NCBI GenBank assembly: GCA_009777955.1
Contig: WRKW01000001.1
Coordinates: 162,309 to 226,308, forward strand
DNA: 64,000 bases
Origin: Alphaproteobacteria bacterium
GTDB lineage: Bacteria > Pseudomonadota > Alphaproteobacteria > Rs-D84
Direction: 5' to 3'
Shown: in pieces, positions 16,419 to 18,385 of the stretch
Numbering within the stretch: position 1 is the first letter of the stretch
How the letters are laid out: each line of letters starts with the position of its first letter
Program-made: the position numbers and the translations under genes
Notes under the pieces: model-generated
The model's database searches: none
What the model saw: the letters and a program-made list of their open reading frames with translations, nothing else
Told to the model about the DNA's origin: nothing

Positions 16419-17420
16419 TTGTGTAAATATGATATAATCTTTGCCAAGAGAGATTATATTTTGAAAAAATTCCTTTTATTTTTTGTTACAGTTAATGCTT
16501 TGCTATTGTGTCAGGTTTATGCCGATATATTGGCACTGGATATCGCGGTTGCCGAAACGCGGGACAGTTGCAATGGAATTTCTGATGAATTGAAATCATT
16601 ACAGACCATGGCCGGGATAAATACTGCGATTACTGGTATCGGAACAGTTGCCGGTGGTGGTGCTTTGTACGCAGGAATTCAAAAGAAACAATTGGATGAG
16701 AAGGCAAGAGAACTTTGGGAATATATTAAAGATATAGAAGATATGAGTGATGATGCTTTTTTTATGCTTTTAGTAAAATTAGCAAATTATAAAGAAGCAT
16801 CTGAGATTATGGATAAAGAATGGGATGAGGACATACTTAATATGGTAGACACACAATCGAAAAATTTTGGTAATTGGCGGACGGGTTTGATGGCCGGTAA
16901 CACTGCTACAAATATTGCAGGTACTGTGATCGCAAATAAAAACAAAAATGCCGGAAAAGGCATAGTTGTTATGGTAAATTCGTGTTTGGATTCTTTAATA
17001 GGTTTGCGCGCGGCCTGGATGCAAGCGCGATTAGATGGTGCGGATATTGATGATTTGATTCTTGCGCAAAGGATAGTTGATGAATGCGGAAAGTACAACA
17101 TAAGGGATTTGGAAAAAATTCCACGTCGATCCGACATAGCCAAATGGTCTTCGGCGGTGGGTATCGGGACAGGTGCAGCTGGAACCGTAACCAGTGTGGT
17201 TGCGAATACGGAAAATATACGCAATGCAGCACGTGACACACAGGATGGTGTTCATAAAAATGCCTGGGAAAAAGAACAGAATCTGAATACTGCTTCCAAT
17301 ATTCTGGCTGGTGCCAGTACCGTTGCCAGTGGTATTGCAACCGGTTTTAATATTGCAACGATTACTGTGATAAACAAAGCATTGGGTGTCGCGAATAGCT
17401 GTGAATATATGTTGAGATGA
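16419..17420 (+). CDS. Hypothetical secreted protein with Gly/Ala/Thr-rich glycine-zipper-like segments. The start is possibly at an internal TTG near 16461.
   Basis: It has a signal-like segment KKFLLFFVTVNALLLCQVYA and repeated small-residue segments (GINTAITGIGTVAGGGALYAG, AGNTATNIAGTVIAN, AVGIGTGAAGTVTSVVAN, LAGASTVASGIATGFNIATI). Its stop overlaps the start of the downstream protease gene (ATGA). Confidence 0.4.
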   Translation: MCKYDIIFAKRDYILKKFLLFFVTVNALLLCQVYADILALDIAVAETRDSCNGISDELKSLQTMAGINTAITGIGTVAGGGALYAGIQKKQLDEKARELWEYIKDIEDMSDDAFFMLLVKLANYKEASEIMDKEWDEDILNMVDTQSKNFGNWRTGLMAGNTATNIAGTVIANKNKNAGKGIVVMVNSCLDSLIGLRAAWMQARLDGADIDDLILAQRIVDECGKYNIRDLEKIPRRSDIAKWSSAVGIGTGAAGTVTSVVANTENIRNAARDTQDGVHKNAWEKEQNLNTASNILAGASTVASGIATGFNIATITVINKALGVANSCEYMLR

Positions 17421-18385
17421 AAAAAATAATTTTTGTTTTAGTGATGCTTTTATCATTTCCGGCACTTGGGTTTGTCGGTCGGACTGATCCACGGGAAAAA
17501 CTTGATTGGAATGCCAACTCTCATAGCGGAATTCTGAGATTTGTGGATTCACAGGGGGGTAATGCTTGTACAGCTCAGTTTGTGGCACCGGATATAATAA
17601 TGACTGCCGCGCATTGTGTTAATGAAAGCAGATGTCATTACATGGGAGATGTGCAGTGGTGTATGTTTGCGGATTTCGATGGCAACTATCTTTCCGCTGC
17701 TGTTGTGGCATCTGGTAATTATGTGAAAGGATTTCCGCCCCTGGATTTACTTATGTCTGAAACATCTTTCAAAGGTTGGAAAGAAGATTGGGTATTGCTT
17801 CGTGCTGATATTTCTTCAGGGTTGGGGAAATATCAATATTATAACGTAAAGCCGAGTGTATCGAAAACAGGGACAAAAATTGATAGAATAGGCTTTGGAA
17901 CTTTGCGCGTATTAGAGGATTGGGAATTAAAGATAATAAGAAATAAAGCTCTTGTCATTATACGTGGAGAAGAATATGATCCAGAACAAGATGAAAAATT
18001 ATTATCGGATGGAAATAGCAGTGGAGATGGTTGGGCATCTCGTCTGTGGGAATTTATTGATACGCTAAATATTTCGACACAAGAAGAAAATTCCGGTGGT
18101 TCGGCCATTGAACCTATTTTTTATGATGGCCATCAGTTGAAAATTCATAGGGGATGCTCTGTTGTATTAAATGATGGACTTACAGTATTTCATGATTGCA
18201 TATCCTTCGGGGGAGACTCTGGTGGAGTTATAGCAGAATCCGGTACAATGAATATAGAAGCTGTGGCTTCAGGAAGTGTACCTAATTTATCAGAATCAAA
18301 TGATAGACTTGGTTTTGGGGTTGCTACTTCGCAATTTTATGAAGCTTTACAGGAGTTGTTAAATGCAAAAACAGTGGGCGAATGA
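17417..18385 (+). CDS. Secreted trypsin-like (S1 family) serine protease.
   Basis: It has a signal peptide MKKIIFVLVMLLSFPALG and the catalytic triad context TAAHC (His), DWVLL (Asp) and GDSGG (Ser). It is translationally coupled to the upstream gene. Confidence 0.7.
   Translation: MKKIIFVLVMLLSFPALGFVGRTDPREKLDWNANSHSGILRFVDSQGGNACTAQFVAPDIIMTAAHCVNESRCHYMGDVQWCMFADFDGNYLSAAVVASGNYVKGFPPLDLLMSETSFKGWKEDWVLLRADISSGLGKYQYYNVKPSVSKTGTKIDRIGFGTLRVLEDWELKIIRNKALVIIRGEEYDPEQDEKLLSDGNSSGDGWASRLWEFIDTLNISTQEENSGGSAIEPIFYDGHQLKIHRGCSVVLNDGLTVFHDCISFGGDSGGVIAESGTMNIEAVASGSVPNLSESNDRLGFGVATSQFYEALQELLNAKTVGE

Follow-up and report, generated by a model that had tools for sequence, protein, structure and literature searches.

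Several described systems, including the TpsB/TpsA, CdiB/CdiA, Rhs, and LXG cassettes, combine a conserved accessory gene with a variable secreted cargo and are present as several cassettes per genome. A second set of proteins, namely the N terminus of VacA, Tde1 from type VI secretion (T6SS), TelE from type VII secretion (T7SS), and EsxX, contains charge-free helices of Gly, Ala, Ser, and Thr with small-xxx-small spacing, and two reports connect Tde1, TelE, and EsxX with the passage of an enzyme or toxin to a membrane or across it (PMC10240207, PMC12744356). Here we describe a pair of genes, designated A and B, that has likenesses to both. The pair lies in a 64,000-nucleotide stretch of DNA (contig WRKW01000001.1, positions 162,309 to 226,308; referred to below as the window) from an uncultured alphaproteobacterium of the lineage Rs-D84, and it consists of two plus-strand open reading frames, 16419/16461..17420 (A) and 17417..18385 (B). 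Gene A encodes an exported helical protein and gene B a secreted serine protease of family S1. Taken alone, B is an ordinary, though divergent, S1 protease, and the object of interest is the A family together with its cassette architecture, in which A is the constant component. This family and this architecture could not be placed in any described system, and literature searches found no description of either.

Partners and distribution of the A family

The gene downstream of A encodes a protein with a signal peptide in every case, and the type of that protein varies. An S1 trypsin-like partner is found at 17 of 87 A-family loci, the window included; at the 16 further loci, about 11 of which are distinct, the A-family gene stands directly upstream of the trypsin-like gene. 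A protein of the glucosaminidase (GH73) class is the partner at 5 of the 87 loci, and the member of this class that was tested (L060) matches PF01832 above the cut-off. A class of large cargos accounts for 51 loci, and several further small cargo classes are without annotation. The ATGA-type overlap of 4 nucleotides (nt) between A and the next gene is present at 71 of 82 distinct A-family loci, and because the exact 4-nt overlap recurs this widely, the overlap between A and B is not a chance occurrence. All 66 pairwise comparisons showed stronger conservation of A than of B (medians, 43% versus 33%). The A tree groups partly by cargo class, with protease partners in at least three clades. Because the classes of cargo vary while the ATGA coupling stays the same, and because A is more conserved than B, A is the constant component of the cassette and the secreted enzyme the exchangeable one.

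Transcription of the two genes is probably also joint. Of 79 distinct A-family genes, 42 have a box of the form TGnTA[TC]AAT in the 150 nt upstream of the gene, whereas the background frequency is 0.025 per 180 nt. Among 88 cases examined, the final 200 nt of A contained this box once. Its near absence from the 3' end of A suggests that B has no promoter of its own, and A and B appear to constitute one transcription unit under the promoter of A. The initial annotation, made from the letters of the window, had described a dedicated, cotranscribed, and translationally coupled pair. The recurring overlap and the lack of a promoter box before B bear out that description, and the repeated adjacency of A-family and trypsin-like genes at other loci is in line with it.

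The genes that flank the A-cargo pair differ from locus to locus. No conserved third gene and no immunity gene was found after the cargo; the next genes are unrelated housekeeping genes, genes on the opposite strand, or further cassettes. Tandem A-cargo-A-cargo arrangements occur (L067 2904-7114, L074 3514-9752, and L001 5001-7767), and at L001 a single A gene precedes two trypsin-like genes that overlap each other.

The large cargos are mostly 850 to 1800 amino acids (aa) long and Cys-rich. Their first 560 to 650 aa align across all 51 proteins, and their C termini are variable. The protein encoded at L023 6930-9989 and its 50 relatives have 18 to 38 cysteines and a central, charge-free Gly/Ala stretch of 20 to 45 residues near residues 430 to 550. 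No homology was found between A and the hydrophobic core of the large cargos. An HExxH motif, identified by regular expression only, is present in about half of the large cargos, 55 to 130 residues from the C terminus and up to about 700 in the longest. The AlphaFold model of a large cargo (pLDDT, 72.6) has a confident alpha/beta N-terminal domain and gave no match in a Foldseek search of the PDB. Comparison of the C termini with Pfam, NCBIfam, and the PDB gave no annotation except for a Tlde1/YkuD domain in L071. C-terminal Tlde1_dom or YkuD-like (LD-transpeptidase-like) domains are present in four cargos (L061 6924-8000, L042 6855-7922, L072 6963-8138, and L071 6945-8435), which cluster within the large class through the common region. 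The L071 protein joins the N terminus of the large class to a YkuD/Tlde1-like domain, and the cargo is therefore modular.

A conserved N terminus with exchangeable C termini is also the arrangement of polymorphic toxins, and some of the cargo domains (Tlde1_dom and glucosaminidase) are known antibacterial effector types; Tlde1, for example, is an antibacterial effector of the T6SS (PMC9638812). This arrangement is found in the large cargo class, and B of the window is a protease domain alone. Unlike the cargos of two-partner secretion (TPS) and polymorphic toxin systems, the cargos of A have ordinary Sec signal peptides, contain no TPS, LXG, PAAR, or Rhs domains, and are not followed by an immunity gene.

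The A family appears to be lineage-restricted. A word-indexed search gave 836 matches, and an exhaustive profile search gave 476 cluster representatives with E <= 1e-3 among 1.84 billion. In GTDB species genomes, the family was found at 227 places, all of them in uncultured gut metagenome-assembled genomes labelled Alphaproteobacteria, Rickettsiales, or Candidatus Enterousia, and there are often two to four copies per genome. An A gene is present on 2 of 2.9 million viral contigs, and this near absence rules out a phage origin of the family. These are two IMG/VR contigs classed as viral (L088 and L089), on which the A-family gene has 39% identity.

Candidatus Enterousia belongs to the order Rs-D84; genomes are smaller than 1 Mb and lack most biosynthesis, and a partner-dependent lifestyle has been proposed (PMC12306168). 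Rs-D84 genomes have been reported to lack the standard transporters for sugars, amino acids, and peptides and to contain numerous genes for hypothetical membrane proteins (PMC12306168). Bacteria of Rs-D84 and related groups, none of which has ever been cultured, occur widely in metagenomes of the rumen, of the hindgut, and of human, mouse, and termite guts (PMC12306168). For genomes of less than 1 Mb, the upkeep of several cassettes, in some of which the cargo gene measures 3 to 5 kb, is an investment that points to a central role in the lifestyle of these bacteria. How Rs-D84 bacteria obtain nutrients or interact with partners is an open question (PMC12306168).

The protease B

The word-indexed search with B returned only B itself and one further protein (P0122), and relatives of B were therefore gathered through the A-family loci. 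A profile of 14 such relatives matched solved S1 proteases, with E values of 1.6e-17 for 3i78, 1.5e-16 for 7uxg, and 7e-16 for the glutamyl endopeptidase 1p3c. Over the known S1 structures the E values ranged from 1e-10 to 1e-17, and both halves of the domain were matched, in two stretches. The triad H66/D124/S268 is in the canonical order His-Asp-Ser and is invariant in the 14 aligned proteins of the partner class. These results uphold the earlier identification of B as a secreted S1 protease with an intact triad. B alone scored 19.5 bits against the Pfam family Trypsin (PF00089), for which the cut-off is 20.6, and the match was confined to the region of the His motif; matches to PF00089 of unmarked status were found in some relatives within the partner class of B. 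The identity of B to the relatives in its own class is just 20 to 36%.

B resembles the Streptomyces trypsins (3i78 and 1sgt), the S1B glutamyl endopeptidases, the Spl proteases, and the exfoliative toxins (1p3c, 1qy6, 5mm8, and 1agj) in the order of its triad, in the TAAHC and GDSGG motifs, and in its Sec signal peptide. A D24-x-R26 motif directly past the signal peptide is invariant among the 14 relatives. The D-x-R...V motif at the N terminus of B is like the mature ends of glutamyl endopeptidases. Because the mature end would fall right before the invariant D24-x-R26, B appears to have no propeptide. The lack of a propeptide sets B apart from these proteases, as do roughly 50 additional residues between the Asp and the Ser, which include a conserved LRILxDxEI helix motif, and the A-family gene upstream. 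Proteases of this class are always preceded by an A-family gene, in a set of relatives gathered through A-family loci. Given the invariant triad and the profile matches, B is a genuine but divergent S1 protease.

P0122 (L087 382-2013) is a 543-aa protease without an A gene upstream. Fused to its C terminus are a coiled coil and a pair of hydrophobic segments rich in Gly, and its stretch NMSDRDFFNYL...QSKPNRILGGLAIGATGIGG resembles the region of loop 1 and segment 2 of A, with an hhalign probability of just 10%. The possibility that P0122 is a natural fusion of A and B, which would have provided a Rosetta-stone argument, was dropped on account of this low probability.

Architecture and possible roles of A

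No match to A was found in Pfam, NCBIfam, or the sequences of the PDB with the single sequence, with 27 family members, or with a 120-sequence profile. The N-terminal hydrophobic run of A is conserved across the family alignment. Four cysteines (C37, C175, C209, and C314) are invariant in the family, and so are R140, T141, N249, N276, N280, and N297. In the AlphaFold model, A is all-helical, with a confident helical head and four conserved segments rich in Gly, Ala, Thr, and Asn (Table 1) located in long helices that run outward. Loop 1 has 58 to 90 aa in 120 relatives and about 370 aa in P0222, P0251, and P0257; longer members of the family differ solely in their longer loop 1 coiled coil, and pLDDT is below 50 at residues 103 to 121 of this loop in the model of A. 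Foldseek searches with the model gave no significant match, with ClyA-family pore formers among the top hits (E of at least 0.04 and a best TM-score of 0.38), and no similarity to a transporter fold was found.

The four segments correspond to runs of 19 to 28 alignment columns with less than 10% charged residues family-wide. The angle between the hydrophobic face and the variable face of each helix was determined on helical wheels from the family alignment, with six further helices as controls. On segments 1, 3, and 4 it is the hydrophobic face that varies (angles in Table 1), and the conserved face is small and polar. In the control helices of the head and loops, the hydrophobic face is the conserved face (151 to 176 degrees), the pattern of soluble proteins. 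Segments 1, 3, and 4 thus display the conservation pattern expected of membrane-embedded helices, and segment 2 is ambiguous. Lysine plus arginine make up 27 to 29% of the ends of loop 1 and of loop 3, versus 10%, 14.5%, and 19% of the N-tail, loop 2, and the C-tail, respectively. All four invariant cysteines are on the side low in these residues, that is, in the parts that form the head. This distribution of charge fits the positive-inside rule with one topology. The position-independent Hessa scale was uninformative for A, as the protein's own signal peptide scored +3.8 kcal/mol.

The initial annotation had likened four small-residue segments of A to glycine zippers of pore formers. The segments themselves are present throughout the family as charge-free runs of membrane type. 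A is not a member of the known glycine-zipper families: the Pfam families Rick_17kDa_Anti (PF05433), Gly-zipper_Omp, Gly-zipper_OmpA, and Gly-zipper_YMGG gave no match to A at E values up to 1, and glycine-zipper families are absent among the 25 most-matched Pfam families listed for 27 diverse A relatives. There is no sequence relationship between A and the glycine-zipper toxins. In those toxins a short stretch of the toxin itself makes up the zipper, and export is by type V, VI, or VII secretion, whereas A is a separate, Sec-exported protein of 300 aa that combines a Cys-bonded head with four such helices and a hairpin of coiled coil. A resembles ClyA, Hbl, Nhe, AhlB, and SmhB in that all are elongated, all-helical proteins of about 300 to 370 aa with Gly/Ala-rich segments. 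ClyA has a redox-sensitive cysteine pair. Neither the Foldseek comparison nor Pfam, which gave no match, places A in the ClyA family. Furthermore, the partner genes in ClyA-type operons are paralogues of each other and not enzymes, as they are with A.

One possible explanation for these features, which we favor tentatively, is that A is an inner-membrane protein of four helices with a disulfide-bonded head in the periplasm, by which it captures its co-synthesized partner and keeps that partner at the membrane. Translation of B by termination and reinitiation at the ATGA would yield roughly equal amounts of A and B, and both proteins would be exported by way of their Sec signal peptides. Once the signal peptide of A had been cleaved, the four small-residue helices would assemble into a transmembrane bundle with a conserved interior of polar and small residues. 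The disulfide-bonded head in the periplasm would be built from the helices at the two termini together with the central loop, and the coiled-coil hairpin of loop 1 and the short loop 3 would remain in the cytoplasm. Because a cytoplasmic loop 1 would never cross the membrane, its range in length from about 60 to about 370 residues would be easily accommodated. The head would capture the partner as it emerges from Sec; A would then hold it at the membrane surface in a 1:1 complex, either tethered or kept in check until release. The protease B would be a payload rather than an activator of A, and in the paralogous cassettes the payload would be an enzyme that acts on the cell wall or a polymorphic protein of very large size.

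Several observations weigh against this location and function, which we infer for A from its sequence. The median maximum hydropathy in a 19-residue Kyte-Doolittle window (KD19) is 1.48, 1.03, 1.20, and 1.15 for segments 1 to 4, respectively, and segments 2 to 4 are thereby far less hydrophobic than transmembrane helices from the same lineage. For these the median was 1.86 and the 10th percentile 1.4, in a reference set of 37 helices taken from YidC, MFS, Lgt, and BI-1 and from one polytopic protein of the window. Sec might not arrest the weakly hydrophobic segments 2 to 4. The face angle of segment 2 (105 degrees) gives no clear answer, and the confidence of the model is low (pLDDT, 50 to 70) in precisely the four segment helices. 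A cleavable signal peptide ahead of an N-tail of a mere 28 residues is unusual for a polytopic protein. Finally, tethering alone does not explain why an effector-like repertoire of Tlde1-like, GH73, and giant polymorphic cargos is found without an immunity gene.

Two described systems offer partial parallels to an A protein that tethers and regulates its partner. In FtsEX, a four-helix membrane protein has an extracytoplasmic domain that docks a cell-wall hydrolase or an activator of one, such as EnvC, PcsB, CwlO, or RipC. The parallel is one of function, as no homology between FtsX and A was detected. FtsX differs from A in having the opposite orientation, in working with the FtsE ATPase, in being single-copy, and in having no exchangeable coupled cargo. 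The MIB-MIP pairs of mycoplasmas occur in several copies per genome. Like A and B, they consist of a noncatalytic surface partner and a dedicated serine protease encoded in tandem in genome-reduced, host-associated bacteria (PMC7935358, PMC12994834). However, MIB is a large antibody-binding protein whose partner is always a protease, whereas the cargo of A belongs to several classes.

The main alternative would be that both proteins leave the cell as a binary effector. The soluble, disulfide-locked A would insert its zipper-like helices into the membrane of a bacterial or eukaryotic target and act there as a pore or translocator beside a wall- or protein-degrading cargo. We consider this possible but unlikely. 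The segments are only marginally hydrophobic, below the transmembrane helices of the lineage, yet they are charge-free with inside-out conservation, and their composition resembles that of channel-forming glycine zippers such as the N terminus of VacA. Weak Foldseek hits of A include pore formers of the ClyA family. Glycine-zipper effectors are documented in PMC10240207 and PMC12744356, and the cargos include the antibacterial effector types Tlde1_dom (PMC9638812) and GH73 as well as large proteins with a conserved N terminus and a variable C terminus. The faster evolution of B than of A and the reduced genomes and proposed partner-dependent lifestyle of the lineage (PMC12306168) are also consistent with an effector. 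However, in order for a bundle to form, the charged loop 1 of 60 to 370 residues and loop 3, with 29% lysine plus arginine, would have to cross the target membrane. In addition, the charge pattern follows the positive-inside rule of a protein that is inserted cotranslationally, there is no evident route across the outer membrane of the producer, and no immunity gene accompanies the pair. That same absence would be expected if A were itself an immunity-like inhibitor or a chaperone that binds its partner in the periplasm of the producer and keeps the hydrolase inactive or competent to fold. B without a propeptide would be active once exported, the GH73 and Tlde1/YkuD-like cargos act on peptidoglycan, which the producer has too, and 1:1 coupling suits an inhibitor. 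Such a role for A is nevertheless improbable, because a single family would have to neutralise unrelated folds (S1, GH73, LD-transpeptidase-like, and giants of unknown fold). Moreover, classical immunity proteins covary with their toxin, whereas A is the conserved partner, and four membrane-type helices and a variable coiled coil would be left unexplained.

The transporter-poor genomes of the lineage raise the idea of uptake, in which the cargo would degrade external polymers (protein or cell wall) and oligomers of A would form a channel for import across the inner membrane. The predicted interior of the bundle is conserved, polar, and small, and contains the invariant R140, T141, N249, N276, N280, and N297. 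The reported lack of standard transporters and wealth of hypothetical membrane proteins in Rs-D84 (PMC12306168) and the presence of several cassettes per genome would also agree with a channel. The proposal is purely inferential, though, and we think it quite improbable: apart from the HExxH motif in about half of the giant cargos, no hydrolase domain is recognisable in them, an enzyme and a channel would not need to be coupled 1:1, and A resembles no transporter fold. Least of all do the partner genes agree with the model put forward in the initial annotation, in which A is a protoxin or pro-bacteriocin that the coexpressed protease B cleaves and activates. A and B are coupled and both are exported, A has segments of membrane type, and protease partners recur in separate clades of the A tree. 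However, about 80% of A-family genes have a partner that is not a protease, with identical coupling, and because of this we regard activation of A by B as very unlikely. The stronger constraint on A than on B also speaks against it, as does the family alignment, in which there is no conserved linker and no motif resembling a cleavage site that is specific to A proteins with protease partners. In a looser sense the pair may be a bacteriocin-like system, but no immunity gene accompanies it.

Two further types of system were considered and rejected. A is all-alpha and not an Omp85 barrel, and no Omp85, POTRA, or TPS domains from Pfam were found in A or in the cargos that were tested, which excludes two-partner secretion. 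A holin-endolysin pair or type 10 secretion is excluded by the 300-aa length of A, with its signal peptide and Cys head, by the small number of glucosaminidase partners (5/87), and by the 2 viral contigs among 2.9 million.

Beyond the role of a single pair, it is conceivable, although we have low confidence in this, that the A family is the membrane-translocation or anchoring part of an undescribed, lineage-specific system for protein delivery. Each effector would bring its own alpha-helical carrier, produced in a 1:1 ratio through the ATGA coupling, and the system would serve Rs-D84, Candidatus Enterousia, and their relatives as a means of attacking partner cells, attaching to them, or feeding on them. 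If A is a carrier or translocator, it would represent a new means by which diderms deploy effectors exported through Sec, and the A gene would be a search handle for cataloguing the effector repertoire of the lineage. If A is a tether only, its family would still be a new one, of membrane scaffolds that serve hydrolases in the periplasm.

Gene boundaries, promoter, and neighboring genes

The features of the locus are listed in Table 1. The initial annotation had assigned 333 aa to A, reading from the TTG at 16419. This is probably too long, and the true start is most likely the TTG at 16461, because the public annotation of an identical protein (P0001) has 319 aa from that codon (MKKFLLFF...VYA|D), because a -10 box and a Shine-Dalgarno (SD)-like AAGAGAG lie inside the longer reading, and because the -10 box recurs upstream of the relatives. 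A near-identical 'TATGATATAAT' extended -10 box is present at 16428-16438 of the window and 5' of the A genes in L008, L010, L011, L019, L023, and others. In most A-family genes it is 8 to 20 nt 5' of the start codon, and the leaders are therefore very short.

Table 1. Positions of features of the A-B locus, in window coordinates
Feature	Position	Strand	Remarks
Gene A	16461..17420	+	319-aa exported helical protein, founder of an uncharacterised family; identical to public protein P0001, labelled 'hypothetical'
Gene B	17417..18385	+	322-aa secreted S1 (chymotrypsin-fold) serine protease
ATGA overlap	17417..17420	+	Start codon of B (17417-17419) over stop codon of A (17418-17420); read from the sequence
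Extended -10 box TG-n-TATAAT of the A-B unit	16430..16438	+	TG at 16430-31, TATAAT at 16433-38; consensus match only
SD-like AAGAGAG	16446..16452	+	8 nt 5' of the TTG start of A; read from the sequence
A signal peptide (MKKFLLFFVTVNALLLCQVYA)	16461..16523	+	A-x-A type site before D22; KD19 peak 1.9; cleavage by inspection only
A segment 1 (aa 50-73), charge-free Gly/Ala/Thr helix	16608..16679	+	Face angle 58 degrees; median maximum KD19 1.48
A loop 1 (aa 74-140), hairpin of charged coiled coil that varies in length	16680..16880	+	Membrane-proximal ends 27% lysine plus arginine
A segment 2 (aa 141-159)	16881..16937	+	After invariant G137-x-x-R140-T-G-L; face angle 105 degrees (ambiguous); KD19 1.03
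A head centre (aa 160-228), invariant C175 and C209	16938..17144	+	pLDDT 82-96 over 161-220; face angle 166 degrees, soluble-type
A segment 3 (aa 229-250), charge-free Gly/Thr/Ala helix	17145..17210	+	Face angle 14 degrees; median maximum KD19 1.20
A segment 4 (aa 274-301), charge-free, invariant N276, N280, N297	17280..17363	+	Face angle 31 degrees; KD19 1.15
B signal peptide (MKKIIFVLVMLLSFPALG)	17417..17470	+	KD19 peak 2.2; cleavage site by inspection only
Catalytic His66 codon (TAAHC)	17612..17614	+	Invariant column; codon checked in the sequence
Catalytic Asp124 codon (EDWVLL)	17786..17788	+	Invariant column; codon checked in the sequence
Catalytic Ser268 codon (GGDSGG)	18218..18220	+	Invariant column; codon checked in the sequence

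No intrinsic terminator was found 3' of B. Upstream of the pair in the window is a gene for a MurC-like ligase, and downstream are two convergent genes, a YbaK-like gene and the gene for ArgRS; all of these are ordinary genes. A search with tblastn found no paralogues within the window, and an Rfam scan of the window found two tRNAs and nothing else. The AT-rich flanks of the pair had been pointed out as a feature, but the GC content is 37 to 45% across the whole window, and the flanks are unremarkable.

Two other genes of the window encode predicted surface or secreted proteins. A plus-strand open reading frame of 1543 aa at 22553-27184 has a signal-like N terminus and a long collagen-like region of Gly-x-y triplets, which accounts for a peak of 62% GC at 23 to 24 kb. 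After this region come many repeats of about 35 aa of the form 'ATAGQVAEVLKEDSEFIESARGHQG..TGATG', and the product is probably a large surface fibre protein. On the minus strand, positions 11619-13658 encode an autotransporter in which AC_1/pertactin passenger elements are combined with a beta-barrel domain; this shows the organism to be a diderm with type V secretion.

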